Assembly: GCF_003231495.1 (NCBI RefSeq)
Contig: NZ_PQWO01000005.1
Location: 90,001-122,000 of the forward strand
Length of the DNA: 32,000 bases
Reading direction: 5' to 3'
Origin: Acaryochloris thomasi RCC1774
GTDB lineage: Bacteria; Cyanobacteriota; Cyanobacteriia; Thermosynechococcales; Thermosynechococcaceae
Shown here: positions 1,066-23,443 of the stretch, in pieces
Layout: every line of letters starts with the position of its first letter
How positions within the stretch are numbered: position 1 is the first letter of the stretch
The notes under the pieces: generated by a model
What the model was told of the DNA's origin: nothing
Database searches by the model: none
Seen by the model: only the letters and a program-made list of their open reading frames with translations
Translations under genes and position numbers: made by a program

Positions 1066-2511
1066 ATGGTCCCGATTCAGCAACCGCTTACCCATAGACC
1101 GAAGCCTCCGATGTGGCTGTTGGGCTTGATGGGAGCAGGAATTGTGCTTGGAGTCTCAGGAGTATATGTGATCGGCCAGAGTGCATCTGGCGATATTGAT
1201 CTCAATCAGCTAACAGTTCCCGTCAAATCAGAAAGTTTAACGCTTCGGATCGCTGCCAGCGGAACGCTGATTCCTGCTCAGAACGTCAATCTCAGCCCTA
1301 AGGTCGCAGGCGTTGTAGCGCAGCTTCTCGTTGAGCAGGGCGATCAGGTTGAGCAGGGTCAAGTGATTGCTCGCATGGATCGCCGCGACTTAGAAGGGCA
1401 GATTATTCAAGCCCGAGCTTCTGTCGCTCAAGCTCAGGCAAGATTGGCAGAGCTACGGGCCGGAAATCGGGTTGAAGAGGTGGCGCAGGCACAGGCTCGG
1501 ATGTCTCAAGCGCAGGCCGAATTGGCACGCCGCCGAGATCGTCGCCCAGAGGCAGTGGCCGAAGCCAGCAGTCAAGTCGCAGCCGCTGAATCCATGGCAA
1601 AACTCTCCCAAAAGCGGGTGGACCGCTATCAGGGCTTAGCGGAGGCTGGGGCTGAAACGCGCGATCGTGTGGATGAAGTCATTGCAGACAATCAGAATGC
1701 CCAGGCAATGCTGCGAGAGGCTAGAATGCGGCTCCAGAGGGTCCAAAACGAGACGGAGAGAGAGGTCCAGCAGTCTGTTGCCAGCGTTCAAGAGGCTCAG
1801 CAAGCGTTCCGTTTATCTCAACAGGGCACACGTCCCGAAGAAATTGCGCAAGCTGTTGCCGCGACTCGAGAAGCTGAGGGTCGCTTGCGAATCGTTGAAA
1901 ATCAATTTCGAGATACAGACATTCGCGCCCCGTTTGCAGGGATTATCACGCAGAAGTTTGCCTCCGTGGGCGCTTTTGTCACCCCCACGACCTCAGCATC
2001 TTCCACCCTATCTTCAACGTCAGCTTCTATTGTGTCGCTGGCAAGAGAGTTAGAGGTGGTCGCGAAGGTGCCGGAAATCGATATTGGCAAGGTTAGACCT
2101 GGCCAGCAGGTCGAAATCAGAGCTGATGCCTATCCCGAAAAAACCTTTACAGGACGGGTTCGTCTGGTCTCTCCTGAAGCGGTTGTGGATCAAAATGTCA
2201 CGTCATTTGAGGTGCGTATATCACTGCTGAGCGGACAGGACCAGCTGCTATCAGGGATGAATACAGACCTCACCTTTTTGGGTGACAAGGTAGATGATGC
2301 GGTGGTGGTGCCGACGGTTGCGATCGCAACCCAAAAGGGCCAAGCCGGTGTCTATCTCCCTGACGAGGACGACAAACCAGAATTCAAGCCCGTCACCATC
2401 GGCACCTCTGTTGCTGACAAAACCCAGATTTTAGATGGCGTAGAACCGGGCGAGCGTGTCTTCATCGACTTCCCGGAGGGCGTAGAGCCGGAGGACAGTG
2501 AGGCAGAATAA
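1066..2511 (+). CDS. Efflux periplasmic adaptor, HlyD/MacA/DevB family
   Basis: 481 aa. N-terminal TM helix (MWLLGLMGAGIVLGVSGVYVI), a lipoyl-like segment (KVAGVVAQLLVEQGDQVEQGQVIARMD), a long Ala/Gln/Arg-rich coiled coil, and a beta-barrel segment (IRAPFAGIITQ). The stop overlaps the next start (TAATG at 2509-2513). Confidence 0.9.
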   Translation: MVPIQQPLTHRPKPPMWLLGLMGAGIVLGVSGVYVIGQSASGDIDLNQLTVPVKSESLTLRIAASGTLIPAQNVNLSPKVAGVVAQLLVEQGDQVEQGQVIARMDRRDLEGQIIQARASVAQAQARLAELRAGNRVEEVAQAQARMSQAQAELARRRDRRPEAVAEASSQVAAAESMAKLSQKRVDRYQGLAEAGAETRDRVDEVIADNQNAQAMLREARMRLQRVQNETEREVQQSVASVQEAQQAFRLSQQGTRPEEIAQAVAATREAEGRLRIVENQFRDTDIRAPFAGIITQKFASVGAFVTPTTSASSTLSSTSASIVSLARELEVVAKVPEIDIGKVRPGQQVEIRADAYPEKTFTGRVRLVSPEAVVDQNVTSFEVRISLLSGQDQLLSGMNTDLTFLGDKVDDAVVVPTVAIATQKGQAGVYLPDEDDKPEFKPVTIGTSVADKTQILDGVEPGERVFIDFPEGVEPEDSEAE

Positions 2512-3728
2512 TGGATATTGTTGAGAGCGTTAAGATGGCCGGGGCCACCCTGATTGCCAATCGGCTCCGCAGCAGCTTGACCATGCTGGGCATGATTATT
2601 GGCAACGCCTCCGTGATTTCGATGATTGCTGTCGGGCAAGGAGCAGAGAAATATGCAGCTGGGCAGTTTGAATCACTCGGTCCTAATTCTCTATTTATTG
2701 TCCCCGGTAGCGACAGAGCAAGGCGGCGCACCTTTGAGGTTCCCAAGACTCTTGTTCTGGCCGATGCCGAAGCGATTAGGACTCAAGTTCCAACGGTCCA
2801 GGGGGTTGCTCCGCAAATTCAAGAGCAGCTTTCTGTTGTATACGGAAACGTCAATACCAGCATTTCAGTGACGGGCACCGACGAAAATTATGCTGCGGTG
2901 CGCGACCATGACGTCGCTCAGGGGCGATTTATTACGGCTCTCGATGTTAAACGCGGCAATCCTATAGCCGTCATTGGCTCTGATGTCGTAGATAAAGTCT
3001 TTGGCAGCACAAATCCCCTAGGCAAACAACTGCGGCTCAACAACCTCAGTTTTCAAATCGTGGGAATTATGGAGACGAAAGGTTCTTTCCTTGGCTCCAG
3101 TCAAGATGACGTCATTTTTATTCCGCTGTCGGTGATGGCGGATCGGCTGTCAGGTTCCACTTCTCCCTTCGGGACTCAGCTCACTTTTATTTCGGTTTCT
3201 GCCCGCAATCAGGCCAGTATTCCAGCCGCACAGTTCCAGATTCGCAACCTGCTGCGGCTCCGGCACAAGATAATCGATGAAGATGATTTCACGGTGCGAT
3301 CGCAAAAGCAGGCCCTCGAAATTATTGGCAACGTCAGCGGTGCCTTAACCGTTATGCTCGCCGCCATTGCCAGCATCTCGCTCTTGGTCGGCGGCATCGG
3401 CATTATGAATATCATGTTGGTTTCTGTGACCGAGCGCATTCAAGAAATTGGCCTGCGGAAAGCCATTGGCGCTTCACAGCAGGATATTTTGGTGCAGTTC
3501 ATGATTGAAGCCATCATTCTCTCAGCGGCAGGCGGCCTGATCGGGACCGCAGTTGGCGTCGGCGGCACCCTCGTAGTAGGAGCCTTCACACCCTTAGAGA
3601 CGGGCATTTCAATCCCTGCCGTGGTTATGGCAGTCAGCGTTTCCGGCGGCATTGGTCTCTTCTTCGGCGTCGTGCCCGCCCGTCGCGCCGCCAGGATGGA
3701 TCCCATTGTCGCGCTCCGCAGCGCCTAA
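2511..3728 (+). CDS. ABC-transporter permease, MacB/DevC-like (FtsX domain, large periplasmic loop)
   Basis: 405 aa. N-terminal TM helix, a periplasmic domain of about 230 aa, and a C-terminal FtsX-type three-TM bundle (ERIQEIGLRKAIGASQQDILVQF, ARRAARMDPIVALRSA). Translationally coupled to the adaptor gene. No ATPase gene follows. Confidence 0.9.
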   Translation: MDIVESVKMAGATLIANRLRSSLTMLGMIIGNASVISMIAVGQGAEKYAAGQFESLGPNSLFIVPGSDRARRRTFEVPKTLVLADAEAIRTQVPTVQGVAPQIQEQLSVVYGNVNTSISVTGTDENYAAVRDHDVAQGRFITALDVKRGNPIAVIGSDVVDKVFGSTNPLGKQLRLNNLSFQIVGIMETKGSFLGSSQDDVIFIPLSVMADRLSGSTSPFGTQLTFISVSARNQASIPAAQFQIRNLLRLRHKIIDEDDFTVRSQKQALEIIGNVSGALTVMLAAIASISLLVGGIGIMNIMLVSVTERIQEIGLRKAIGASQQDILVQFMIEAIILSAAGGLIGTAVGVGGTLVVGAFTPLETGISIPAVVMAVSVSGGIGLFFGVVPARRAARMDPIVALRSA

Positions 3729-4005: not shown

Positions 4006-6420
4006 GTGAACAATCAAAGCATACTCGATCAGCTTCGAGAGTTTAAGGCACAGAAAAGCTTATTTTCTGAGCGTTACAGCTTCATACAGCAAGAACCTGA
4101 TGTGCCTACGGAGCCTTCAAGCTCAATACAACAGCCACTCCTTCGTACTGAAGTGAGTCAGAACGGTTCTTTAGGTTTGGCATCCGTCATTCAGCCACCC
4201 TCCGCTTTCAGATCGTTGGGCAGCACACAGACAGCAGCACCGCTGAGTGATGAGGCATTACCCGAACTCATTCTCGATCCCGTTACACAACTGGTGACGG
4301 TTGACGATGATTCCCCTACTGTTTCTGTCCTCTGGGACCGGGCCGTGCAGCTAGCGGTGATCAATGGCGCTCCAGGTCCAACGGTCGCATCCCGCGCCTA
4401 CGGTATGTTGCACACGGCCATGTTTGACGCTTGGGCAGCCTATGACCCCGTTGCGATCGCAACCCAACTGGGCGATGACCTGCAGCAGTCCGCCTCAGCC
4501 AACACCGTCGAAAACAAAACAGAGGCCATGAGTTACGCCGCCTATCGCGTACTCACCGATCTTTTTCCTGAAGAGATTGCTAGCTTTGACGCCTTGATGG
4601 CTGAATTGGGCTTTGACCCCAGCAATACCACCACCGACACCACCACCGCTGCCGGGATTGGAAATGTATCAGCAGAAGCGCTTCTAGAGTTTCGCCGTAC
4701 GGATGGCTCAAATCAGCTCGGTAACGATCCGAACGGCACGCTGGGTACTCCCTACTCTGACAACAGTGGATACACCCCCTTCAACAATACGGGCGAAAGC
4801 ATTGACATCGAACGCTGGACCCCCGAGAGCGTTCCCATTGACGCGGCCCCCGGAGAAGAACTTCGAACCCAACAATTCCTAACGCCCCAGTGGGGTGATG
4901 TCACCCCCTTCAGCCTAGACTCCGGCGATCAGCTTCGCCCCGAAGCCCCTGAACCCTTTTTGGTTGACGGCGTTGGGGGAACCGTCGATCTCGAAGCCAA
5001 AACCATTACGCTAGCCGACGGCACGGTACTCCCCATTAGCAAAGACCTGATTGGTACCGTTATTAACCCTGGCTTTATTGAGCAAGCCGAGAGAGTCGTC
5101 GAAGTCAGTGCCAATCTAACCGATGAGGAAAAGCTGGTTGCTGAATTTTGGGAAGACGGCGGCGGGACTTCATTCCCTCCCGGCACCTGGATGACTTTCG
5201 GGCAGTTTGTTTCAGCCCGCGACAACAACAGCCTCGACACCGATGCTCAACTGTTCTTCGGACTTGGCAATGCTGTCTTCGACGCGGGCGTGACTACCTG
5301 GGAAGCCAAAACGTTCTACGACTACGCCCGTCCGGTTCGCGCAATCCGCGATCTCGGTGAACTCGGCCTGATCGGCGAATTTGATGCAGACCTGGGTGGC
5401 TTTGCCGTTGATGCTTGGGCAGGCCCCGGTGAAGGCACCCAAAGAATACTGGCGACAGACTTCATCACCTATCAAACCCCCGGCACAGACCCGTCACCTC
5501 CGTTTGCTGAATACACCTCAGGACACAGCGCCTTCAGCGCTTCCGGTGCCGAAATCTTGAAGTTGTTTACGGGCAGTGATTCCTTCGGCGGGTCTGTCAC
5601 CTTTGCACCCGGTGAATCACGGTTTGAGCCAGGTCTCACGCCAGGGGATGAAACAACCCTAGACTGGAATACTTTCACGACGGCAGCCGACGAAGCCGGA
5701 ATTTCTCGGATTTATGGTGGCATTCACTTCGATGACGGTGACCTTAATGGTCGAGCATTGGGTCGCCAAGTCGGTCGCTCTGTCCTCGATCAGACCCTGC
5801 TTTTTATTAACGGAGGCCAAGCCGTCAACTCCATTACCGGTACCGAGCGCCGTGACTTTTTACGCGGCACTAGTGGGGATGACCGCATCGTGGGTCTCGG
5901 TGGCAATGATGTCATCTGGGCTCGTCGCGGCAATGATCGGGCACTTGGGGGCGATGGGCGTGATGTGATCTTCGGCGGACAGGGCAGCGATTCTCTAAGT
6001 GGCGGCAGCGGTCGGGATGCTTTGCTGGGCGGCACCGGACGGGATTACCTGACGGGTGGCCACGATCGTGACGTCCTCAAGGGCGGCAGCGCTGATGACA
6101 TCCTGATGGGCGATCAGGGCAATGATGTTCTGTTCGGCGGTCGGGGACGTGATGGCTTTATCTTCGGCAACGGCGACGGCAAAGATGTCGTCTTTGATTT
6201 CAAGGTAGGCACTGACTTCATCGGCTTAGTGGACGGGTTAACCTTTGATGACCTCGATATCTCTCGCCGGGGCCGCAACACGGTTCTAGGCGTCACCGAA
6301 ACGGGAGAAGACCTGGCCATTCTTAGACGGGTTTCCTCTTCTCAATTAACAGAAGATCAGTTTTTAGCCGCCGCTGACTTCTCAGGTTTCACTAGAATTC
6401 CTAGCGATTCAGTCACCTGA
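4006..6420 (+). CDS. PAP2 / vanadium-dependent haloperoxidase-like protein fused to C-terminal RTX (hemolysin-type Ca-binding) repeats
   Basis: 804 aa with a GTG start. PAP2/VHPO motifs: K-x6-RP (AKTFYDYARP, from 5308), SGH (YTSGHSAF, from 5518) and SRIYGGIHF (about 5704-5727). Roughly 10 GGxGxD nonapeptide repeats lie at about 5840-6200 (GGNDVIW, GGDGRDVIF, GGQGSDSLS, GGSGRDALL, GGTGRDYLT and others). No N-terminal signal peptide, which fits type-I secretion substrates. Confidence 0.8.
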   Translation: MNNQSILDQLREFKAQKSLFSERYSFIQQEPDVPTEPSSSIQQPLLRTEVSQNGSLGLASVIQPPSAFRSLGSTQTAAPLSDEALPELILDPVTQLVTVDDDSPTVSVLWDRAVQLAVINGAPGPTVASRAYGMLHTAMFDAWAAYDPVAIATQLGDDLQQSASANTVENKTEAMSYAAYRVLTDLFPEEIASFDALMAELGFDPSNTTTDTTTAAGIGNVSAEALLEFRRTDGSNQLGNDPNGTLGTPYSDNSGYTPFNNTGESIDIERWTPESVPIDAAPGEELRTQQFLTPQWGDVTPFSLDSGDQLRPEAPEPFLVDGVGGTVDLEAKTITLADGTVLPISKDLIGTVINPGFIEQAERVVEVSANLTDEEKLVAEFWEDGGGTSFPPGTWMTFGQFVSARDNNSLDTDAQLFFGLGNAVFDAGVTTWEAKTFYDYARPVRAIRDLGELGLIGEFDADLGGFAVDAWAGPGEGTQRILATDFITYQTPGTDPSPPFAEYTSGHSAFSASGAEILKLFTGSDSFGGSVTFAPGESRFEPGLTPGDETTLDWNTFTTAADEAGISRIYGGIHFDDGDLNGRALGRQVGRSVLDQTLLFINGGQAVNSITGTERRDFLRGTSGDDRIVGLGGNDVIWARRGNDRALGGDGRDVIFGGQGSDSLSGGSGRDALLGGTGRDYLTGGHDRDVLKGGSADDILMGDQGNDVLFGGRGRDGFIFGNGDGKDVVFDFKVGTDFIGLVDGLTFDDLDISRRGRNTVLGVTETGEDLAILRRVSSSQLTEDQFLAAADFSGFTRIPSDSVT

Positions 6421-9986: not shown

Positions 9987-11069
9987 TTAGCCATTGATGA
10001 CTGGAGCAGTCAGAGCAACAGTAGTGGATTCCATCGACGCTAGGTCCAGAGGGAAGTTGTGAGCGTTGCGCTCGTGCATGACTTCAAAACCAAGGTTAGC
10101 TCTGTTCAGAACATCGGCCCAAGTGTTGATCACGTTGCCGCTTGAATCAACGATGGAGTGGTTGAAGTTGAAACCGTTGAGGTTGAAAGCCATGGTGCTG
10201 ATGCCCATTGCAGTAAACCAGATTCCAATCACCGGCCATGCACCCAAGAAGAAGTGCAGTGCGCGGCTGTTGTTGAAGGAAGCGTATTGGAAGATCAACC
10301 GACCGAAGTAGCCGTGGGCTGCAACGATGTTGTAAGTCTCTTCTTCTTGACCGAATTTGTAACCGTAGTTAGCTGACTCAACTTCAGTTGTCTCACGGAT
10401 GAGAGTAGAAGTAACGAGTGAACCGTGCATCGCGGAGAACAGTGAACCACCGAAGACACCAGCAACTCCCAACATGTGGAAAGGGTGCATCAGAATGTTG
10501 TGCTCTGCCTGGAAGACAAACATGAAGTTGAAGGTTCCAGAAATACCGAGAGGCATACCATCAGAGAAGGAACCCTGACCCAATGGGTAGATGAAGAATA
10601 CTGCAAAGGCAGCGGATACTGGAGCAGAATATGCAACACAGATCCAAGGACGCATGCCGAGGCGGTAAGAGTATTCCCACTGACGACCCATCCAGCAGCA
10701 GATTGCAATCAAGAAGTGAAAGCAGATGAGCTGGTAAGGACCACCGTTGTACAGCCACTCATCGAGTGAAGCTGCTTCCCAGATAGGGTAGAAGTGGAGG
10801 CCAATAGCGTTAGAGGAAGGAACAACTGCACCGGTGATGATGTTGTTGCCGTACATGAGTGAACCAGCGACTGGCTCACGGATGCCGTCGATGTCGACGG
10901 GAGGGGCGCCAATAAAGGCGATGACGAAACAAGTAGTCGCAGCGAGGAGCGTAGGAATCATCAATACGCCGAACCAACCGATGTATAAACGGTTATCGGT
11001 GCTTGTGATCCAGCTACAAAAGCGCTCCCAGGCGCTGCCGCTTTCGCGACGTTGTAGAACAGTTGTCAT
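9987..11069 (-). CDS. psbA: Photosystem II D1 protein (Q130 form, all Mn4CaO5 ligands present, 16-aa C-terminal extension)
   Basis: 360 aa, unmistakable D1 ([60 protein letters not shown]). D170, E189, H332, E333, H337, D342 and A344 are all present. Confidence 0.99.
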
Positions 11070-11127: not shown

Positions 11128-11166
11128 CTTGTTAACTAATGTAACAGACTCTGCCTCCCATTACAA
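11128..11166 (-). promoter_or_regulatory. Putative psbA promoter with overlapping HLR1-like repeat
   Basis: The minus strand reads TTGTAA (11166-11161), a 17-nt spacer, then TACATT (11143-11138). GTTACATT-AG-TTAACAAG (11145-11128) approximates the HLR1 consensus (G/T)TTACA(T/A)(T/A)-NN-(G/T)TTACA(T/A)(T/A) with 2 mismatches. Confidence 0.4.
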
Positions 11167-11214
11167 GGGCGTTTGAGCGTATTCTTCTAATTCTCTTAAC
11201 AATTCGAGTCAATT

Positions 11215-11463
11215 TTAGGTGTCGTGGATGCCGGGGATAATCAAGTCTTCTGCTGACCTAAAATCATCATCTTCTGTCTTCTCGCCGATGAGTTCAGGCT
11301 GTTGGTTGATGCATCCTGGCTTCTGATTGAACTGACAGACTCTGGCGTAGAGCTTGGCCCGCGTCCCTGGCTGACCCACTGCAAAATTTACTTTTTCGTC
11401 TGCTGTGATGGAAACGTTACAGGCGGGGCAAGTTTCAAGGGTCTGATTATCTTGTGGATTCAT
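11215..11463 (-). CDS. Small Cys-containing (zinc-ribbon-like) hypothetical protein
   Basis: 82 aa. CPAC near the N-terminus, a later C-x8-C (CQFNQKPGC), and an acidic tail. No family recognised. Confidence 0.55.
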   Translation of the reverse strand: MNPQDNQTLETCPACNVSITADEKVNFAVGQPGTRAKLYARVCQFNQKPGCINQQPELIGEKTEDDDFRSAEDLIIPGIHDT

Positions 11464-11567
11464 GAGTTCCTTTACTCGACCGATACGTCAGCTTTATTTA
11501 CACAAGGATAAGGGGTGAGACCTTTTCCCTTCTATATAGATAGATCCTTCAGCGCTTAATTGAGGAA

Positions 11568-11600
11568 CCCCCAGTTCATACAAGCTGTATGCACTGGGGG
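11568..11600 (-). terminator. Hairpin downstream of the 90-aa gene (possible terminator)
   Basis: CCCCCAGTTCATAC-aagct-GTATGCACTGGGGG forms a 14-bp stem with one mismatch. The T-tract on the minus strand is weak (TTCCTCAATT). Confidence 0.45.
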
Positions 11601-11683
11601 AGCTTTCTGAATCAAATGCAAGATTCAGTCGCGTTACCTATAACCCTAGAAGGGCCATAAGGTAATTCTCAAGTCGAAATGGA

Positions 11684-11956
11684 CTAGCTAACGAGAATTG
11701 CAATAGAGACTGGAATCCAGGTGACAGCCGCAAATGCTACGGCTTGCCATGCTCGTGTCTTGACTGAAGTTTTCTCAGCAGCGGAACTTGTAGGTCCGAC
11801 TGCATAGTTATTGGCTAGACCCTCTTGGTCAACGGTGCCACCAAAGACGCGAGGCATAGGAAAACCCTCTGACCGCTTGAGGCGTGCTGCTGCCTCAGCA
11901 GGGATGAGTTCGTTAGCAACGGAATACTGTTGAGCAGTAGAAGTAGCGGAAGTCAT
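11684..11956 (-). CDS. Small tail-anchored membrane protein, function unknown (putatively high-light regulated)
   Basis: I place the start at ATG 11956 (MTSATSTAQQYS...), preceded by AAGGGA. The track's TTG at 12019 is the -35 hexamer of the predicted promoter. There is one C-terminal TM helix (AWQAVAFAAVTWIPVSIAILVS). Confidence 0.6.
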   Translation of the reverse strand: MTSATSTAQQYSVANELIPAEAAARLKRSEGFPMPRVFGGTVDQEGLANNYAVGPTSSAAEKTSVKTRAWQAVAFAAVTWIPVSIAILVS

Positions 11957-11971
11957 AAATAAATCCCTTTG

Positions 11972-12019
11972 TGTAACGCTTTGTATCAATAATGTAACAA
12001 GTTGTAACGTTAATGTCAA
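11972..12019 (-). promoter_or_regulatory. Promoter (-35 TTGACA / -10 TACATT) overlapped by four phased HLR1-type half-sites
   Basis: Minus strand: TTGACA (12019-12014), a 17-nt spacer, TACATT (11996-11991). Half-sites are GTTACAAC-TT-GTTACATT (12008-11991), then GATACAAA-GC-GTTACACA (down to about 11970). On the plus strand these are TGTAAC/TGTATC at 11972, 11982, 11993 and 12003, spaced 10-11-10 bp. Confidence 0.5.
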
Positions 12020-12262
12020 ATGGTATTTTTATTTGTGGTTCTTGTGGTAATGGATTGTGTCTAGAAGAGCCTAGAGGCCACTATCTCATGAGGCTTCTCT
12101 ACCTCCACTCCACATATGTGGAGCAGTTTTTCTCCAGGCTATGGGCAACGTGATGATGATCACGAGGGGGTAGGGCGTAGATCACGGCGGCAGCTTCTGG
12201 ATTATTGGATTATCAGCCTAGTTAAGAGAGCAGCACACCTCAATCAACCTACGGAGACAACG

Positions 12263-12448
12263 ATGCAACTCACCTATCGCGGCATTTCTTACCATGCTCC
12301 TGACCCTGTAGAAGTCTCTTCTCAAGGGACAGTTCAAGGGCTGTATCACGGCATCTCTACACAAATCACGTTGCCACAGGTGACTGAAGGTCTTGATGAA
12401 TTACTCGGCCAAATGATCTATCGAGGCATTCAACTAGCTGCTCACTAA
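12263..12448 (+). CDS. DUF4278-family small protein
   Basis: MQLTYRGISYHAPDPVEV... is the characteristic M-x-L-x-YRG-x-x-Y start of DUF4278, preceded by GGAGA. The longer track ORF from 12116 adds an implausible Arg-rich leader. Confidence 0.7.
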   Translation: MQLTYRGISYHAPDPVEVSSQGTVQGLYHGISTQITLPQVTEGLDELLGQMIYRGIQLAAH

Positions 12449-12769
12449 AAAATTCAATTTCCTCCGCAAAATAAACCATCTGCACCTCTTTGGACTCTCA
12501 GTGATGAGTGTCTATGGGGGTGTTTTTATAGAAGGGAGCGAGGAAAGGACTGAACAGCATAAACTCACAGGCATCACAGAAAGCTCAAACCTCTGATGGT
12601 TTATGTCTGCACGTATAGCCTTCGACATATTGATTAGGACATCAAAGCGATTGAAAGCTATGTCTGCCGAAGCCGCGCTGCTGGCGACGGCTATAGAAGA
12701 GAGACCAGACGGCCCACACTGGGCGTAGAGATAGACCATGCAGAAACCAAAACCAGCACCAGCAGCGAC

Positions 12770-13540
12770 CTAAGCGAGCGGCGCTGCTTCAGTCGTGCGG
12801 AGTAAATCCATGATTTCATCTTGATATTGTTGAAATTTGGATTCTCGTTTGACAAGGTAAGTGCGTTCGCTTGGCAAATCCACGGCAATTTCGCGCTGGA
12901 CCATACCGGGACGAGCGGTAAGTACATAAACCCGCTGGGAGAGAAAGACGGCTTCGCCCACGTCATGGGTGATCATCAAAATTGAGGTGCCGGTCTGTCG
13001 CCACAGATTAAGCAAGAACTGCTGCATGGTCTCTTTTGTTTGGACGTCCAAAGCCCCAAACGGCTCGTCCATTAACAAGATTTTGGGCTGGCAGGCTAGG
13101 GCACGGGCTATAGCAACTCGCTGCTTCATCCCCCCCGACAATTCTCTAGGTAGCGCCTTTGCAAACGCCGTCAAACCTACAACATCTAAGTAATAGGCTA
13201 CTCGATCTCGCCGCTCTTTCTGAGAAAAGCCCTGAAGCTTCAGACCAAACTCTACATTTTTTGCCACCGTCATCCAGGGATAAAGCGTGTAGCGTTGAAA
13301 CACCATCCCGCGATCGGGTCCAGGACCTACCACTGTTTTATCATCGACGGTAATCAAGCCAGTGGTTGGCAGATCTAGCCCAGCGACCATGCGCAATAGC
13401 GTTGACTTACCTGAACCAGAGGCACCCACCACGCAGACAAACTCGCCGGTTTCAACATGGAGATTGATTGCTTCGAGAACCGAAAGCGAACCTTGCTGGG
13501 TGGGGAATGACTTATAGAGATCCGTAATTTCTAAATGCAT
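12770..13540 (-). CDS. ABC transporter ATP-binding protein, NitT/TauT (nitrate/sulfonate/bicarbonate) family; probable guanidine importer ATPase
   Basis: 256 aa. Walker A GASGSGKST, signature LSGGMKQR, Walker B LLMDEPFGALD, H-loop ITHD. Last gene of the riboswitch operon. Confidence 0.93.
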   Translation of the reverse strand: MHLEITDLYKSFPTQQGSLSVLEAINLHVETGEFVCVVGASGSGKSTLLRMVAGLDLPTTGLITVDDKTVVGPGPDRGMVFQRYTLYPWMTVAKNVEFGLKLQGFSQKERRDRVAYYLDVVGLTAFAKALPRELSGGMKQRVAIARALACQPKILLMDEPFGALDVQTKETMQQFLLNLWRQTGTSILMITHDVGEAVFLSQRVYVLTARPGMVQREIAVDLPSERTYLVKRESKFQQYQDEIMDLLRTTEAAPLA

Positions 13541-13544
13541 GGCC

Positions 13545-14381
13545 CTAATCCACCGCCCACTTACAGGATATGTTCAGCAACCAGCGGAAAAACAGATCCA
13601 AACAAAAGCCAATCAAGCCCAGGATCAGCAGCAGGGCAAAAATTTCGTCAGTGCGAAAAAATCGCTGCGCCAGCTCCACCCGCTTCCCGAGACCTTCGGT
13701 AGCTGCCACCAGCTCTGCAATCACCACTAAATTCCATGATGCAGCCATGTTCACCCGGAAGGCGTCGATAATTTTAGGCATGACATAGGGCGTAATCACC
13801 TGCATCAGCACTTGCCGCTGACGCCCGCCCAGAGTATACGTCGTTTCAATCAGTTCTTTGGGCACAAACTTCACCGCATCCATAATCATCAAAATATTGA
13901 AGAAAACGGTGCCAATGAAAATTAGCGCAATTTTAGGCGGTTCATCTAAACCGAGATAAATGATCAGGAGTGGGATAAAGGCTGGAGCTGGCATATAGCG
14001 GACAAAGCCAATGATGGGTTCCAAAAGTGCCCTGATGCTGGGAAATGTCCCCATACCAATTCCAATCGGAACTGAGAGAACCGCAGCCAGTAGAAATCCA
14101 CCACCCACTCGAAAACAGCTTGCAGTCGTATCTTTGAGCAAGTATCCCTTCTCCCAAAGCGTACCGAACGCTTCAATCACCTTGGCAGGAGAGGGCAAAA
14201 ACTTTGGATCAACAAAACCCGCGCTAGAAAGACCCCACCAGAGTATCAAAGGCACTAGAAACGATAGTGCAATCAAAAACCACTTAAGACCGATCGGAAT
14301 ATCATCAACGATGCGCCAAAAAACGGTGGGCCGAAGTCCTTCTAATTTAGTGTCTGGCGCTGAGGTCGGGTGAGAGATCAT
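13545..14381 (-). CDS. ABC transporter permease, NitT/TauT family
   Basis: 278 aa, multi-TM, with an EAA-like loop (ELVAATEGLGKRV). There is a 4-nt gap to the ATPase gene. Confidence 0.92.
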   Translation of the reverse strand: MISHPTSAPDTKLEGLRPTVFWRIVDDIPIGLKWFLIALSFLVPLILWWGLSSAGFVDPKFLPSPAKVIEAFGTLWEKGYLLKDTTASCFRVGGGFLLAAVLSVPIGIGMGTFPSIRALLEPIIGFVRYMPAPAFIPLLIIYLGLDEPPKIALIFIGTVFFNILMIMDAVKFVPKELIETTYTLGGRQRQVLMQVITPYVMPKIIDAFRVNMAASWNLVVIAELVAATEGLGKRVELAQRFFRTDEIFALLLILGLIGFCLDLFFRWLLNISCKWAVD

Positions 14382-14450
14382 GGAGGTGCCTACAAAATGA
14401 TCAATGGGCAGGCTAATGCCCGCCCAATATCAAATAGCCAATCAGCCTAA

Positions 14451-15479
14451 CTAGCCCTTGTTCTGTTCAGCATAAGCTTTGACAAAGGTATCGTCGAAGA
14501 TCTTCGTCAAGTCTGGACCTTCAGGAATAAAGCCAACATCCACCATAAACTTCGTCATCCGCTCCGCAGCGAAGGGCATATGCTTCATGTTGTCTCCGTC
14601 GCTGAAGGCTTCGAGATTATCTTCAATCGTGAAAAAGCGCGTCCCTTCATTGAACTTCTCGAATTCTTCCGGCGACACCCCGGCACGCTCTGACAATATC
14701 TTGTCCGCTTCTTCAGGATTTTCTTCCATGAAGGCTCGGATATCAAACCAAGTATTCACAAGCGCCTGTACCTGATCAGGGCGCTCATCGATCAGCTTTT
14801 GGCTCACGGTCAGCAAGTCAGGAATCGCCCCTGGAAACTGTGCTGAAGAGAAGAGCTCTTTACTCCCCTCTCGTTGAAGGGCCGTCAGCCAGAAGGGCGG
14901 GAATGCACCCACTGCGTCCACCTGACCTGCAACAAATGCCGCTGCCGCTTTACCTGTCTCTAGGGGAACAATTTCGACGTCCTCGCGCTTCATCCCCTCT
15001 TCTTCTAGCCCTAAGGTCAGCAAAAAGTCGTCAACAACGCCTTCTTCAACGGCAACTTTTCTCCCTTTCAGATCTTGAATACTATTGATTTCCTCTGTAA
15101 CAATAATTTTGTCATTGCCATCAGAGTTATCGTTTACAAGCACCACTACTTGACCATTGGTCGAATCGGCAGCGAAAGAAATTGTGTCATTGAGCGTTTG
15201 GGTGTTGCCGTCTAGTTGACCTGCAGCAAAGGCTTCCATCGACTGTAGATAACCATCAAACCATTTGAGTTCGACGTTAGCCCCGTTCTTTTCAAAGAGT
15301 CCTTCTTGTTCAGCAATCACCCAAGGCCACCAGCCCGGCCAGCTACTGTAGCCAATCACCACAGGGGAGCCACCGTCACCAGCGGGCGCATTACCAGATG
15401 GCGTTTGGGTACAGCTCACCGTCAACAGCAAGCTACATAGAAAAAGAGTACAGATAGATAAAAAGCTACGCCGCTTCAT
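14451..15479 (-). CDS. ABC transporter substrate-binding protein (NMT1/SsuA-like), possible lipoprotein
   Basis: 342 aa. Signal peptide ending LLLTVSC. Periplasmic binding fold typical of NitT/TauT systems (VVIGYSSWPGWWPW). Confidence 0.9.
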   Translation of the reverse strand: MKRRSFLSICTLFLCSLLLTVSCTQTPSGNAPAGDGGSPVVIGYSSWPGWWPWVIAEQEGLFEKNGANVELKWFDGYLQSMEAFAAGQLDGNTQTLNDTISFAADSTNGQVVVLVNDNSDGNDKIIVTEEINSIQDLKGRKVAVEEGVVDDFLLTLGLEEEGMKREDVEIVPLETGKAAAAFVAGQVDAVGAFPPFWLTALQREGSKELFSSAQFPGAIPDLLTVSQKLIDERPDQVQALVNTWFDIRAFMEENPEEADKILSERAGVSPEEFEKFNEGTRFFTIEDNLEAFSDGDNMKHMPFAAERMTKFMVDVGFIPEGPDLTKIFDDTFVKAYAEQNKG

Positions 15480-15522: not shown

Positions 15523-16218
15523 CTATGCTGATTGATGGGCCGGTTTACGGCTTCTGACTTGCGATCGCAACCAGTCAAACCACCTCTCTAACCCATCACC
15601 CGACTGCGCCGAGACCGGAATAACTTTCACACGGGGATTAAGCTGTCGCACATTAGCAACAATGCGCTCAATCTCAATGTCAAGGTACGGTGCCAAATCA
15701 ATTTTAGTAATCAGCAAACAATCTGCCGCCTGAAACATCACCGGATATTTCAGCGGCTTGTCTTCCCCTTCTGTGACGCTGAGCAGTGCTACCTTGGCAT
15801 GTTCGCCGACTTCAAACTCAGCGGGACAGACTAAGTTACCCACATTTTCCACCAGCACCAGGTCTAGATCGGTGGGTCGATGATCTTGCTTGAGCTGATG
15901 AATTCCCCCGGCGACCATCTTGGCATCTAAATGACAAGAGCGACCCGTATTAATGGCAATAACGGGCACATCATATTGTCTAAGGCGGTCTGCATCCAGT
16001 TCAGTCGTCATATCACCCTCGATCACCGCAATTTTGAGTTCGGGGCGCAGTGCAGCTAGGGTTTTCTCCAGCAGGACTGTCTTGCCAGCACCGGGACTGC
16101 TCATCAGGTTTAGGCAAGTCACACCCCATTCATCAAAATGGACACGATTGTGATCGGCCCCTTCTTGGTTGGCATGGAGGAGGTTAATCCCCAGCGCCGC
16201 ATCAACGGTTTGGTGCAT
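15523..16218 (-). CDS. hypB: HypB-type Ni-metallochaperone GTPase (GhaB-like accessory protein for guanidine hydrolase)
   Basis: P-loop [17 protein letters not shown], and the TKIDL GTPase motif. I prefer ATG 16218 (MHQTVDAAL...) to the track's TTG 16257. Overlaps the hypA 3' end by 17 nt. Confidence 0.9.
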
Positions 16219-16582
16219 AGGTTTGTTCCGAATCGGTACAGTATTCGATGCGATCAATCTTTAGCTCCCGCCCCGAGCGGATATCGTCCATTGGGGCTTT
16301 GCAGTCAGGGCAGGCATATTGCAGACCTATTTCAGGGGAGTATTCCTGCTCACAAGAATGACAAAAGGCAATCAGCGGCGTCTCGCGAATCACCAGTTCG
16401 GTATTCTCTAAAAAGGTGCCTCGAGTCTGCACCTCGTAGGCAAACTGGAGACTCACCGGCTCCACGCAGGTGAATCGGCCCACTACGAGATGAACCTTAC
16501 TCACCTCCGGTCGCTCAGGCTGGCTTTCCCACCAGTCCGTGACCGTCATGAGCAGAGCCTTGGTCATATCCGTCTCGTGCAT
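16202..16582 (-). CDS. hypA: HypA-type Ni-metallochaperone (GhaA-like)
   Basis: 126 aa. N-terminal MHE nickel motif and a zinc site CHSC...CPDC. The start overlaps the gdmH stop (TAATG, 16584-16580). Confidence 0.9.
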
Positions 16583-17780
16583 TACCGCCAGTCACCCATA
16601 CCAACAGACATATTGGCCTGCTCGTGAATGTAGGCTGCCTTCTCAGGTCGAGGCAACTGACCAGAGGTGACTAAGTGAGCCATCGTGTCACAGATGACGC
16701 GGGTCGCCATTAACGAGGTCATATCGCTGACGTCATAGGGCGGGGACACCTCAACGATTTCCAGACCGCAAACGGGGGCATTTTGGACAATTTTGCCCAG
16801 CATGTACAGCGCTTCACGGGGCATCAGACCGCCTGGTTCCGGCCAGCCCGTACCGGGGACAAAGCCTGCATCAATACAGTCAATATCAAAGCTAATATAG
16901 ACGCAGTCGGTACCGTCTAGGGCACGCTCAAGGGCAAAGTCTACGGCGGCATCCATGCCCATTTCCATGATGTCGGTCACGGTCAGAATATTGGTGGCCC
17001 GCTCACGGCAGACTTTGACGCCCTGGCGGGGCACCTGCCAGCCGCCAATCCCAAGCTGCACCAGGTTCTTGGCTGGCGCATTGGCCATGTTGGTAGCGTG
17101 GAACCAAGGACAGGTGTGCATCCGTTCGTCGAGATCGGTCTCTTGGGTATCAACGTGGCGATCGAAGTGAATGATGCCCACTTTTAGATCGCCTAGGTGA
17201 CGGCAAACGCCTCGAATGGTGGGGAAGCCAATGGAGTGGTCGCCCCCCAAAATGATTGGGAACGCGCCAGAACTAAAGATGTGAGCAATGCCCTTAGAAA
17301 TCTGATCGAAAGACTTTTCGTTGTTCGCAGGGATGGTAAAGATATCCCCAACATCGCAGAGAGTAATTTGCTCTCTGAGATCGACGCCCAGTTCAAAATT
17401 GTATGGCGTATACAACGCTGATATACGTCGTATACCTTGGGGACCGAAGCGGGTGCCGGGTCGATAGGTGGTGCCGGAGTCGTGGGGAACGCCGACAATA
17501 GCGACGTCGTAGTTGCCGACTTTGCGGACACTTCTAGATAGGGAGCCTTGAGAAAGGTATTGATGCCTGCGTAGTGGGGCAGTTCACCGCGAGAGAAGGT
17601 GGGGATAGTGCGATCGCGAATGCTTTCAGCCGCCTCTAAGCCAAACTGCAGCCCTTGATCCACTTCTTGCTGCCATCCGGTCAGCGGCAGTCGGGATTCT
17701 CGTTCTAGAGCCTGTTCAGCAACGCTCTCGCCCGGTTGAAAAACAGCATCGGGTTGTTGGAATAAAGGATCGTCAGTCAT
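16582..17780 (-). pseudogene. gdmH: Ni-dependent guanidine hydrolase GdmH-like (agmatinase/ureohydrolase family), with the reading frame broken by a 1-nt shift at about 17520
   Basis: Codons 1-87 (17780-17520) encode the long N-terminal extension ending ...INTFLKAPYLEVSAK. The conserved core (VGNYDVAIVGVPHDSGTTYRPGTRFGPQGIRRISALYTPYNF...GGDHS...DRHVD...SFDIDCID) is open in the -1 frame from 17520 to the stop at 16582. Joined, the two parts give 399 aa. The track shows them as the overlapping ORFs 17193..17780 and 16582..17415. Confidence 0.8.
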
Positions 17781-17870
17781 GATTCATCCGTCAGTAGGTC
17801 AAAGAATTGTATTTTTCTTTTTAAAGGAATATCTTTTCTGAATGTCCCAAATCGCTCCTCAACAGCATAC

Positions 17871-18048
17871 ATAAAACCCGGGGCAACAACTCATAGAGAT
17901 ACCGATCCCTACGACTGTTCCTCCCGGGCTTTTGTCCCGCCGTGTCACTAGATAAACAACCGAAGCACAACATTCGGCTCTAGGTTCTAGCTGCTTCTCT
18001 CGGACCAGACATTCATCGTTAAAAACGAGAACCGGAACCCTAGAAGCG
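17871..18048 (-). promoter_or_regulatory. ykkC: Guanidine-I riboswitch (ykkC class) with a terminator-type expression platform
   Basis: The minus strand reads GCUUCUAGGGUUCCGG...CUGGUCCGAGAGAAGC (18048-17992), a variable hairpin, then ACACGGCGGGACAAAAGCCCGGGAGG (to 17920). These are the two invariant ykkC blocks. CCCGGGAGGAACAG (17928-17915) can instead pair with UUGUUGCCCCGGG (17889-17877), which is followed by UUUUAU (17876-17871). Confidence 0.88.
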
Positions 18049-18180
18049 ATGATTTGTAATGATTAAAACTGAAATTTCATTGACTTGTTTACAACGCTAG
18101 CAAGACCTAAATCAAAGAACTGTAGCAAGCACTACTAAACCTAGCTTCAAGTCCCCTGGACAAGCACTGTAACCTGTTAG

Positions 18181-19569: not shown

Positions 19570-19750
19570 TGCGGGGTGCAAAATGACGGGAGTCCTGGTT
19601 GACTCGATTGTCATTGATAGATTTGAAGATGCGATCGCACTTGTCCGCCAGCATGATTAGATGAACCGGAGCGATAACAAGTCGGGCGTTCGCTTCGCTC
19701 ATCCATGTCAACTTAACGCCTGGTTACCATAGACGTTAAAAATCGATCGC

Positions 19751-20071
19751 ATGTCCAAGCAGTCTGACTATGGTCGCAACCCATCGAACAAAGAATTGAG
19801 AGAAGCTGAGCGAGTCCTCCAGCTTCATGCAGAACAGCAGAAAGCTCACCCCTCTGCGATCGCTTCAGATACCAGCAAACTCTCTCACATCAACACCTAC
19901 GGTCGCCTGCCAGAGTACTACATCGACCAACCGTTCACCTGCCGACTCTGTGGCAAACGAGAAATCTGGAAAGCCGCATCCCAGAAATGGTATTACGAAG
20001 AAGCAAAAGGGCATATCGATGCAAAGGCTGTCGAGTGCCATTCCTGTCGCAAAGCAAAAAGGCAGAAATAG
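19751..20071 (+). CDS. Zinc-ribbon domain protein (zf-trcl-like), function unknown
   Basis: 106 aa. FTCRLCGKREIWKAASQKWYYEEAKG...ECHSCRKAK gives CxxC...CxxC. Chosen over the overlapping 19827..20156 ORF, which has no motif. Confidence 0.6.
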   Translation: MSKQSDYGRNPSNKELREAERVLQLHAEQQKAHPSAIASDTSKLSHINTYGRLPEYYIDQPFTCRLCGKREIWKAASQKWYYEEAKGHIDAKAVECHSCRKAKRQK

Positions 20072-20085
20072 GCTCATTTTCAGCT

Positions 20086-22764
20086 CTAAATCGCAACAGT
20101 GTCTGTTTGATGCTGCAAAATCAACCGTTGGCGATGAATGTGTCGCAACTCAATAGCCTGGTCTGAAATCTTCTCAAGCATAAAGATTAAATGCTCAGGC
20201 CGCAGAATATTTCCGTCATTGCAGCAGGTGCCCACATATCGAACGCTCACTGGTTCCATTTGAGTTAGCTCCAGCTCAAGCAGGCGATCGCACAAATTAA
20301 CAACCCGCTTCTTCCCAGATTTGGTCGTATGCTCAAAATTAATCTCAGTCGCCGCCTTAATTTGATCAATCCAACCCTGCCATTGTTCCGAGGTCCCAGA
20401 CTCCTGAGAAGCGATCGTCAGTAAATATTCTGCCTGATGCACCGCCTGGGTTGCAGAGGGATCTGATAGCTCAATAGCATCGACTCGATAGATAGGAATG
20501 TCTGCAGGCAAACATTCCGCCAACGTTTGACGAAACTGATCAACCTCCATCATTTGGGTTAGCTCGAAGTCTACAATCTCGCAATTACTGGTTGCGCCGA
20601 GCGCTAAAGCATTGGCTGGGGCAATTCGAGGGCCGGGATGGAAACCGCCTGTGAAAGCGATGGGGATTTGCGATCGCCGCACCACCCGATCAAACAACCG
20701 CAGCAGATCTAAATGACTGACTAAAGACATATCGCCCTGCTTGCCAAACCAAACCCGCAGCCGCTGCACCCGATCTTTATTAGGGACAAAGTGGCCCGAA
20801 AACTCAGGGATTTCAGGGGGCGGCACCACGACGTTATGGCCGAAATCGATGCTGCAGACACCACAGTGAGAACAGCCTTCAAAGGCGCAGTCAGGTACAG
20901 TGGCAGCTTCCAACGCTCGCTGCAGATCATCCTTAAGCCACTGCTTATCAATTCCGGTATCAAGGTGGTCCCAAGGGAGAGGAAAGTCGAGTTTTGAGTC
21001 TTGAGTTTCGAGTTCTGAGTTGGGGTGTTGGGGTGTTGGAGTGGATGCATCGCCAGCTTCAGCGGGAGTAGAAGGATCGAAGATATTCCACTCACCGGTT
21101 TCAACTTGGCGATATTTCCAAGTGAGGTTAGCTTCTTCAATTGCATCCGTCCAAGCTTGAAATGCCTTGTCTAAGTTCTCCCACCAGGAATCCATACCCG
21201 CACCGAGTTCCCAGGCGCGACGGACCACTGGAGACAGACGGCGATCGCCACGCCCCACAAAATCTTCCATCGCAGAAATACGAACGTCAGTGAAGTTGAC
21301 CTTCACTCCGCGAATCTGCCGGAACTCCGCAAATAATAGCTCTCGTTTACGCTTAAATTCCGTTGTGGAAACCGAATGCCACTGAAAAGGCGTATGGGGC
21401 TTCGGCGTGAAATTAGAGATAGTAACGTTGAAATTCAGACGTTTGCGGCCCTGAGCCTGACATTCTCGGCGCAGCCAGCGCAGCGTCTCAGCAATACCGA
21501 TCACATCGGCATCCGTTTCACCAGGAAGCCCAATCATAAAATAGAGCTTTACCTTGCTCCAGCCCTGCTCACAGGCGGTTTTAATGCCCCTTAATAGCTC
21601 CTCATTGGTCAGACCCTTATTAATGATGTCTCGCATCCGCTGGGTACCGGCTTCAGGGGCGAAGGTAAGGCCAGTTTTGCGAGTACCGCCGATGATATTA
21701 GCAATATTTTCATCGAAGCGATCGACCCGCTGACTGGGCAGCGAGAGCGAAATATTCTGATCCTGGAGCCGATTTTTGATTTCCATCCCTACTGCGGGTA
21801 GAGCCAGATAGTCAGAACAGCTCAGCGATAGCAGCGAGAACTCGTTGTATCCGGTTTCTCGCATCCCCTTCTCAATGGCGTTGACAACCTGTTCAGGGTC
21901 CACATCCCGCGCTGGGCGAGTGAGCATTCCTGGCTGACAGAAGCGACAGCCACGGGTGCAGCCGCGTCTAACTTCTACCGTGAGGCGATCGTGAACCGTT
22001 TGCACATAGGGCACCAAACCAATGGAGTACTCCGGCATGGGGTCGGCCACCCGCCTGAGGATGCGTTTTGGTACACCGGGTCGATTGGGGTGGACCGAGC
22101 CGTCATCAGCCATGTCGTAGAACTGCGGCACATAAACCCCTGGCACTTGGGCTAGATCCAGCAGGAGGGCTTCTCGACTGAGTCCCGCTGCTTTTCCTTC
22201 TTCTAAAATGAGGCCGATCTCAGACAGCAGTTCTTCGCCATCACCGAGGGCAACGAAATCGAAGAAATCAGCATAGGGTTCTGGGTTAGAGGTAGCGGTC
22301 TGGCCCCCCGCAAAAATCAGTGGATAGCTTTTGTTAGGATCCATTGCTCGTTCGGCCCAAGTCAACGGAATATTAGCCAAATCCAGCATTTCGAGGATGT
22401 TGGTAGCTCCGAGTTCGTAGCTGAGGCTAAAGCCGAGGATGTCGTAGTCGATGAGGGGACGCTTGGACTCTACGGCAAACAGGGAGGTGTTTGTGTCGCG
22501 GAGTTTTGTTGCGAGATCGAGAGCGGGGAGATAGGCGCGATCGCAAAGCTGTCTCGGCTGCGCATTAAGAATGTTGTATAGAATAATGTGCCCTAAGTTT
22601 GAAGCCCCTACCTCATAAATCTCAGGATAGGTCAGCACCCAGCGAACATTGGCACTCTCCCAAGGCTTATGCACAGCCCCTAACTCATTACCTAAGTAAC
22701 GAGCAGGCTTCATGATTTCAGGGGTCAACAAAGATTGAACGGCAACAGCCACGGCAAGACTCAA
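20086..22764 (-). CDS. B12-binding-domain radical SAM protein fused to a DUF2344-type C-terminal domain
   Basis: 892 aa. N-terminal KPARYLGNELG, radical-SAM cluster motif CTRGCRFC, and a C-terminal domain (VWFGKQGDMSLVSHLDLLRLFDRVVRRS). The track start is TTG at 22764; ATG at 22713 (MKPARYLG) is an alternative. Confidence 0.88.
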   Translation of the reverse strand: MSLAVAVAVQSLLTPEIMKPARYLGNELGAVHKPWESANVRWVLTYPEIYEVGASNLGHIILYNILNAQPRQLCDRAYLPALDLATKLRDTNTSLFAVESKRPLIDYDILGFSLSYELGATNILEMLDLANIPLTWAERAMDPNKSYPLIFAGGQTATSNPEPYADFFDFVALGDGEELLSEIGLILEEGKAAGLSREALLLDLAQVPGVYVPQFYDMADDGSVHPNRPGVPKRILRRVADPMPEYSIGLVPYVQTVHDRLTVEVRRGCTRGCRFCQPGMLTRPARDVDPEQVVNAIEKGMRETGYNEFSLLSLSCSDYLALPAVGMEIKNRLQDQNISLSLPSQRVDRFDENIANIIGGTRKTGLTFAPEAGTQRMRDIINKGLTNEELLRGIKTACEQGWSKVKLYFMIGLPGETDADVIGIAETLRWLRRECQAQGRKRLNFNVTISNFTPKPHTPFQWHSVSTTEFKRKRELLFAEFRQIRGVKVNFTDVRISAMEDFVGRGDRRLSPVVRRAWELGAGMDSWWENLDKAFQAWTDAIEEANLTWKYRQVETGEWNIFDPSTPAEAGDASTPTPQHPNSELETQDSKLDFPLPWDHLDTGIDKQWLKDDLQRALEAATVPDCAFEGCSHCGVCSIDFGHNVVVPPPEIPEFSGHFVPNKDRVQRLRVWFGKQGDMSLVSHLDLLRLFDRVVRRSQIPIAFTGGFHPGPRIAPANALALGATSNCEIVDFELTQMMEVDQFRQTLAECLPADIPIYRVDAIELSDPSATQAVHQAEYLLTIASQESGTSEQWQGWIDQIKAATEINFEHTTKSGKKRVVNLCDRLLELELTQMEPVSVRYVGTCCNDGNILRPEHLIFMLEKISDQAIELRHIHRQRLILQHQTDTVAI

Positions 22765-22939: not shown

Positions 22940-23443
22940 ATGGTTAATAACGGAACAGCTTATCTTTTCTGGCTGGCTTTCTTTTTTGGATTGGGTGGTA
23001 TCCAGCGATTCTATCTGGGTAAACCTATCAGTGGTGTCTTATATCTTTGCACCTTGGGGTTTTTTGGCGTCGGACAACTGCTCGATATTGCCCTCATCCC
23101 CGGTATGGTAGATGAGAAAAACACAAAATACCGGGCACTGTATGGCTCTCCACATCAAACAGCAGTCCCTCAAGTTGTAGTGAATGTGGGTGAGGGGTAT
23201 CACAACACCACGTCCCCAGCCTTCACCGAGCTACCGACAGCAAACACCGCTAACAAGCGCTTAGACGTTAGCGTTCTCAAAATTTGTCGAGATCTTGGTG
23301 GGGCAACAATGAGCGATTGCGTTATCGAAACCGAAGCCGATCCTGAAGAGATTAAAGCTATTGTCCACCGCCTCAGCGTTGATGGCCTGCTCAGCATTGA
23401 TAACCGAGAGCCAGATGGCGCAATTATTTATCACGCTGTCTAG
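22940..23443 (+). CDS. TM2-domain membrane protein with a soluble C-terminal domain
   Basis: 167 aa. TAYLFWLAFFFGLGGIQRFYLGKPISGVLYLCTLGFFGVGQLLDIALIP is the TM2 two-helix signature. Confidence 0.8.
   Translation: MVNNGTAYLFWLAFFFGLGGIQRFYLGKPISGVLYLCTLGFFGVGQLLDIALIPGMVDEKNTKYRALYGSPHQTAVPQVVVNVGEGYHNTTSPAFTELPTANTANKRLDVSVLKICRDLGGATMSDCVIETEADPEEIKAIVHRLSVDGLLSIDNREPDGAIIYHAV

Follow-up and report, generated by a model that had tools for sequence, protein, structure and literature searches.

The question raised by this locus is how a guanidine hydrolase gene whose reading frame moves by one nucleotide within its coding sequence should be read. In the window (the whole 32-kb stretch of DNA analyzed here), gdmH lies on the minus strand and begins with an ATG at position 17780, the same start codon as in the intact gene of the closest relative found. 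An earlier note had placed the change of frame exactly on a slip-prone A-AAG codon and had offered three explanations: a homopolymer sequencing or assembly error, a very recent inactivating deletion, and low-level programmed or tolerated -1 frameshifting. As set out below, what the sequence holds is a one-base deletion of an ordinary kind, and both the gene and its locus are already known.

Starting from the ATG, the upstream frame encodes MTDDPLFQQ...GINTFLKAPYLEVSAK, followed by low-complexity nonsense. Past ...APYLEVSAK it continues as SATTTSLLSAFPTTPAPPIDPAPAS..., forming a 195-aa ORF (17193..17780) whose out-of-frame stretch includes ...SAKSATTTSLLSAFPTTPAPPIDPAPASVPK if no slip takes place. 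The downstream frame is open from approximately 17590, reads VRKVGNYDVAIVGVPHDSGTTYRPGTRFGPQGIRR... from 17529 and VGNYDVAIVGVPHDSGTTYRPGTRFGPQGIRR... from the G at 17520, and closes with a stop codon at 16584-16582. Both translations agree with those given in the earlier note, and a join at the AAG indeed yields 399 residues. No single frame covers the whole enzyme: codon 84 is one base short, and the original frame ends after 195 codons.

The protein obtained by repairing the frame has Synechocystis Sll1077 as its best match among solved structures (PDB 7esr/7oi1, E 3.2e-235, residues 14-394). Thousands of cyanobacterial homologues fall below an E value of 1e-50, the best of them with 82-91% identity, and a scan of species-representative genomes returned a best match of 90% protein identity. 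The metal-binding and catalytic motifs GGDHS, DRHVD and SFDIDCID are intact in the 3' segment and align identically with those of Sll1077. Homology thus identifies the gene as gdmH, encoding a member of the ureohydrolase superfamily (PF00491) with predicted Ni-dependent guanidine hydrolase activity. The translations and the Sll1077 match bear out both this identity and the single-nucleotide split, as had been proposed.

The surrounding genes form a guanidine locus (Table 1), in which the gha genes are named after PMC12704784. The riboswitch, the two nickel chaperones and the transporter had been described as intact, and this holds, with the aptamer scoring above the gathering threshold of its family and the chaperone and ABC genes being full length. 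The ATG of ghaA overlaps the stop codon of gdmH (TAATG, 16582), and ghaB measures 231-239 aa in relatives. The three gim genes match substrate-binding, permease and ATPase families, respectively, and occur in the same order in the related loci L081, L083 and L091; guanidine import has been demonstrated for their Synechocystis counterparts sll1080-1082 (PMC12704784).

Table 1 Features of the gdmH locus in the window.
Feature	Position	Strand	Basis and remarks
Guanidine-I riboswitch aptamer, upstream of gdmH	17919..18054	-	Rfam RF00442, 67.7 bits (gathering score 63), E 3.5e-10, full model 1-107
Probable expression platform (long hairpin and U tract)	17865..17940	-	Folding; overlaps the 3' end of the aptamer
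gdmH 5' segment, original frame, Met1-Glu83	17532..17780	-	Translation; colinear with Sll1077 and 22 homologues up to ...KAPYLE
Lesion: leftover GT of the Asp84 codon, middle A of GAT missing between 17531 and 17530	17530..17531	-	Alignment to L091
gdmH 3' segment, Val85 to stop, displaced by one nucleotide	16582..17529	-	Translation; unbroken alignment to 7esr/7oi1
A_AAG tetranucleotide, proposed slip site, read in the post-deletion frame	17520..17523	-	Present in the sequence
Stop of the original frame (195-aa product: 83 native and 112 out-of-frame residues)	17195-17193	-	ORF list and translation
ghaA, HypA-like nickel chaperone	16202..16582	-	TIGR00100 hypA, E 6e-33, full length
ghaB, HypB-like GTPase, start codon tentative	15523..16257	-	TIGR00073 hypB, E 9.7e-94
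gimA	14451-15479	-	Full-length NCBIfam match; part of NitT/TauT-type ABC importer (12770..15479)
gimB	13545-14381	-	Full-length NCBIfam match; NitT/TauT-type ABC importer
gimC	12770-13540	-	Full-length NCBIfam match; NitT/TauT-type ABC importer

Upstream of gdmH, the hairpin of the expression platform folds with -39.7 kcal/mol, against -21.3 +/- 2.9 for shuffled sequences (z -6.3), and is a probable intrinsic terminator. A scan for consensus terminators did not pick it up because of its limit on loop length, whereas direct folding did. The platform is unusually long and stable, consistent with a transcriptional ON switch. At the other end of the locus, the approximately 1.6 kb at 11151-12787, between psbA (9987-11069, minus strand) and gimC, have no counterpart in the syntenic locus L081; they hold just two ORFs, of 111 and 110 aa, for which no NCBIfam match was found.

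To place the lesion, we followed the homology in both frames. The last homologous codon of the upstream frame is Glu83 (GAA, 17534-17532), while Val-Arg-Lys-Val-Gly (GTC CGC AAA GTC GGC, 17529-17515) is already encoded in the downstream frame. All 22 aligned homologues carry the motif (L/I/V)-E-D-V-(R/K/H)-x-V-G at the break. Since Val-Arg-Lys, which belongs to this motif, precedes the proposed junction, the homology must change frame between Glu83 and Val85 (GTC, 17529-17527).

The closest relative found, locus L091 from the marine metagenome-assembled genome (MAG) Cyanobacteria bacterium P01_A01_bin.17, has a gdmH that is 91.6% identical at the nucleotide level and encodes an intact protein of 399 aa. 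At the lesion it reads, in short form, CTAGAAGATGTCCGCAAAG, where the window has CTAGAAG-TGTCCGCAAAG, one A fewer; the aligned segments are CTAGAAGATGTCCGC and CTAGAAG-TGTCCGC, respectively. Over a longer stretch, ...TATCTAGAAGATGTCCGCAAAGTCGG... in L091 corresponds to ...TATCTAGAAG-TGTCCGCAAAGTCGG... in the window, the flanks being otherwise identical over about 78 nt. Five further syntenic loci (L081 and L083-L086, 83-84% identity) reveal the same one-base gap when aligned with the window. The orthologous codons, whose comparison had been proposed as a check, were inspected in 89 loci covering the segment: every one has an in-frame GAR-GAY (GAAGAT in 58, GAAGAC in 18, GAGGAT in 11 and GAGGAC in 2), hence an Asp codon, and none shows the shift. 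Judged by these alignments, the Asp84 codon GAT has lost its central A, a single A flanked by G and T, outside any homopolymer.

The break therefore falls within the 17415-17540 interval originally given for it, but not on the A-AAG, which lies 10 nt, or three codons, further downstream. Neither did a homopolymer miscall, with four A's read as three, stand up to the comparison: the intact relative has the same AAA, in CGC AAA GTC (Arg-Lys-Val), and the missing base is elsewhere. The A_AAG accordingly predates the deletion and did not evolve in response to it. More generally, the case demonstrates the need to locate a frame junction from the homology of each of the two frames before appealing to a slippery motif that lies close by.

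Could the ribosome nonetheless make use of this motif? A recoding explanation would have some ribosomes slip by -1 on the A_AAG to give a functionally relevant 399-aa protein (...LEVSAKVGNY...), as a tolerated or selected compensation. Among tetranucleotides, A_AAG is the one most prone to -1 shifts in E. coli; at (G_UU)A_AAG it has been documented to compensate a frameshift mutation close by, and CGA_AAG motifs are known to be used naturally (PMC5009743; PMC10861913). Here the motif lies no more than four codons from the lesion, a slip on it would preserve the native protein length, and the idea is compatible with purifying selection on gdmH. Among the genes of the window, A_AAG occurs at 0.9% of codons and any Z_ZZN tetramer at 7.9%; by our own estimates, an in-frame A_AAG is expected within four codons of about 3.5% of random one-base deletions, and any Z_ZZN of about 28%. 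The proximity is mildly unusual but not remarkable.

The rest of the evidence speaks against recoding. The junction defined by homology, at 17531/17530, is away from the motif, and the nucleotides of the motif are ancestral, so that nothing evolved to create it. We found no X_XXY_YYZ heptamer at the site (the sequence is C_GCA_AAG), no Shine-Dalgarno (SD)-like element (GGAG or AGGA) within 20 nt upstream of the A_AAG, and downstream no stimulatory structure better than in shuffled sequences (z 0.06 over 80 nt and -0.12 over 60 nt). In E. coli, tetramer motifs lacking a stimulator shift at a mean of 0.147%, against a background of 0.112% (PMC4066793). Nor would the slip product be as seamless as had been suggested: it reads ...LEVSAKVGNY... 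where the family has ...LEDVRKVGNY..., Asp84-Val85-Arg86 being replaced by Val-Ser-Ala. Asp84 never varies in the 89 loci, and Val85 and Arg86 are each replaced in a single locus. The second solved GdmH-type structure (9fek) likewise retains EDVRK, while the segment is variable in more distant ureohydrolases. With 0 of 89 orthologues frameshifted, programmed or tolerated -1 frameshifting is left unsupported, the bare tetranucleotide being the sole feature present, and we regard functionally relevant recoding as highly unlikely. The A_AAG is better described as a by-product of the ancestral Arg-Lys-Val codons that allows at most a trace of unprogrammed -1 slippage. A related scenario, in which the strain carries a real deletion and lives on small amounts of GdmH (as the Val-Ser-Ala variant) produced by such slippage of tRNA-Lys, seems to us very unlikely; if true, a fresh indel in a nitrogen-assimilation gene of a cyanobacterium would here be rescued by naturally occurring compensatory frameshifting.

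One candidate stimulator was considered and rejected. The only strong hairpin downstream, of 11 bp and inside gdmH at approximately 17405-17436 on the minus strand (GGUAUACGACGU-loop-GCGUUGUAUACC, -14.6 kcal/mol), within the codons for GIRRISALYTPY, starts about 85 nt past the A_AAG. It is common to the window and L091 (-17.4 kcal/mol) and is not present in the other 84 of 86 orthologues, over which the median is -6.1 kcal/mol. Being lineage-specific and so far downstream, it lends no support to recoding, and it looks like lineage-specific codon choice.

The same hairpin bears on another possibility, namely that the 3' part is translated separately and has activity, either by itself or in combination with the N-terminal fragment. 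A TTG at 17415 in the downstream frame does open an ORF of 277 aa, which public databases list as a protein. However, this TTG is inside the hairpin and has no SD-like sequence, and the downstream frame has no ATG, GTG or TTG between approximately 17590 and 17415. Missing from the 277-aa product would be about 38 conserved residues that follow the lesion, among them VAIVGVPHDSGTTYRPGTRFGPQGIR, nearly invariant among homologues, and none of the 22 aligned homologues or syntenic relatives is split. We consider a split enzyme or internal restart extremely unlikely. As for the databases, the TTG-initiated fragment (16582-17415, minus strand) is found as a protein in both nr and UniRef, and the 195-aa 5' ORF is not; the public annotation of the genome thus appears to regard the gdmH fragment as a gene, not a pseudogene.

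The age of the lesion was then considered from the pattern of substitutions. After repairing gdmH in silico, we polarized the differences between the window and L091 with three outgroups (L081, L083 and L089). On the window branch there are 0 nonsynonymous and 41 synonymous codon changes, compared with 5 and 28, respectively, on that of L091; in the 3' segment, the window has no amino-acid change of its own when set beside L091 and the outgroups. With about three nonsynonymous sites per synonymous site, a branch that was unconstrained for a fraction f of its length would be expected to show about 123 x f nonsynonymous changes, which by our own calculation limits the unconstrained share of the window branch to less than about 2.4% (95% bound). 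A lesion within so well-kept a gene must be either extremely young or an artefact. In other words, the substitution pattern indicates that gdmH was under full purifying selection until very recently, or still is, with the deletion existing only in the deposited sequence. Of the marks of a decaying pseudogene, only the disrupted frame is found; selection shows no relaxation, and the indel is the single lesion in the gene. A perfectly preserved gene with one lesion is also what a consensus error would look like. Two of the explanations first offered, an assembly error and a very recent inactivating deletion, remain live.

Homopolymers are the usual context of consensus indel errors. The base missing from gdmH lies outside any such run, which argues against an error, and the remainder of the assembly was searched for further broken genes as a sign of error-proneness; none was found in the window. 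All other large ORFs have full-length family matches, so the assembly does not look indel-prone. Over the approximately 8 kb that can be compared with L091 and L088 (a second locus of the same MAG), the gap in gdmH is the sole gene-breaking coding indel whose length is not a multiple of three. Homopolymer runs in other genes of the window are read in frame, including one at a site where the relative itself is shifted.

That site deserves a description of its own. In L088 (3138-3642), a TM2-domain gene is split into ORFs of 84 and 85 aa by an extra base in an A8 run (GATGAAAAAAAACAC), while the window (22940-23443, plus strand) reads GATG-AGAAAAACAC and has one whole ORF of 167 aa. The frameshift, whether real or a homopolymer error, is thus in the MAG and not in the window. 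The comparison with L088 also showed about 487 nt without counterpart (approximately 19620-20107), between the genes for a GH1 beta-glucosidase and a radical-SAM protein; an ORF of 106 aa within it (19751-20071) has CxxC...CxxC zinc-ribbon-like spacing and may be a small inserted gene. Elsewhere in the window, an 804-aa protein (4006-6420, plus strand) combines DUF6851, a second helical-bundle domain resembling vanadium chloroperoxidase and RTX calcium-binding repeats, and its gene adjoins HlyD/MacB-type export genes (1066-3728).

Independent copies of the allele were sought in large sequence collections. In a collection of 15 billion proteins, the proteins of the window come from only one NCBI contig, of 353,399 nt, and look-ups of the exact 195-aa ORF product and of ghaA returned no encoding contig on record. 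A metagenome search with a pattern of 32 specified bases and an optional extra base gave no match. A shorter pattern retrieved only two alleles, both intact and both from distant relatives with about 75% nucleotide identity.

These observations have to be set against the two remaining readings. The first is a consensus or assembly error, whereby the gdmH of the organism would be intact (GAA GAT GTC) and one A would have been dropped from the deposited sequence. It would account for a gene otherwise free of defects, with no nonsynonymous change on its branch and with catalytic motifs and locus intact, and for a frameshift that is known from a single assembly and absent from the 89 orthologous loci and the metagenome alleles. 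The context of the missing base, the lack of any further frame-breaking indel in the window and the correctly read homopolymers weigh on the other side. We put this reading at somewhat below an even chance.

The second reading, namely that one base was truly and very recently lost in the culture that was sequenced, we judge to have about an even chance of being correct; the position of the base outside a homopolymer and the otherwise clean assembly slightly favor a real allele. With a genuine deletion, the lesion would be present in the organism itself and not only in the consensus sequence. Ribosomes would translate the 83 native residues and then the 112 out-of-frame ones, terminating at the premature stop. 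Functional enzyme would be absent, translational coupling into ghaA through the TAATG overlap would be lost, and guanidine would probably not serve the strain as a source of nitrogen. The two readings also differ in the sequence they imply, the true one being GAAGATGTC in the case of a consensus error and GAAGTGTC in that of a real deletion.

The relevance of the finding extends little beyond annotation. The gene is a gdmH with a one-base deletion in codon 84, to be recorded either as a pseudogene or as a sequence to correct, and neither a 277-aa 'agmatinase' fragment nor a recoded gene would be a fitting annotation. Should the deletion be real, it would constitute a natural gdmH null in which the riboswitch, chaperones and importer are intact, predicting no growth on guanidine and possibly higher sensitivity to it.

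Finally, we compared the locus with known systems. Programmed frameshifting of the dnaX type combines three elements: an A_AAA_AAG heptamer, an SD-like element upstream of it and a stem-loop downstream. The window matches only in having a lysine AAG preceded by an A; heptamer, SD-like element and a stem-loop at 5-9 nt are all missing, and orthologues do not share the shift. Another comparison is with compensatory or incidental -1 frameshifting at A_AAG, as in suppression of a nearby frameshift mutation at (G_UU)A_AAG, Bacillus cdd (A_CGA_AAG) and IS1222 (G_CGA_AAG) (PMC5009743): the window likewise has an A_AAG three codons past the deletion, where a -1 slip of a single tRNA would restore the downstream frame. 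Unlike in cdd and IS1222, where CGA precedes the AAG, the preceding codon in the window is GCA and no stimulator accompanies it; three conserved positions would be altered in the slip product, and the motif is older than the lesion. In gene order the locus matches that of Synechocystis sp. PCC 6803 (riboswitch, gdmH as sll1077, and ghaA, ghaB and gimABC as sll1078-1082; PMC12704784), from which it departs by the one-base deletion in codon 84 and the resulting lack of a full-length product in one frame. A last parallel is offered by ordinary frameshifted genes of draft genomes, whether young pseudogenes or consensus indels. Nothing sets the gdmH of the window apart from these, with which it shares a single indel in an otherwise conserved gene, seen in one assembly.
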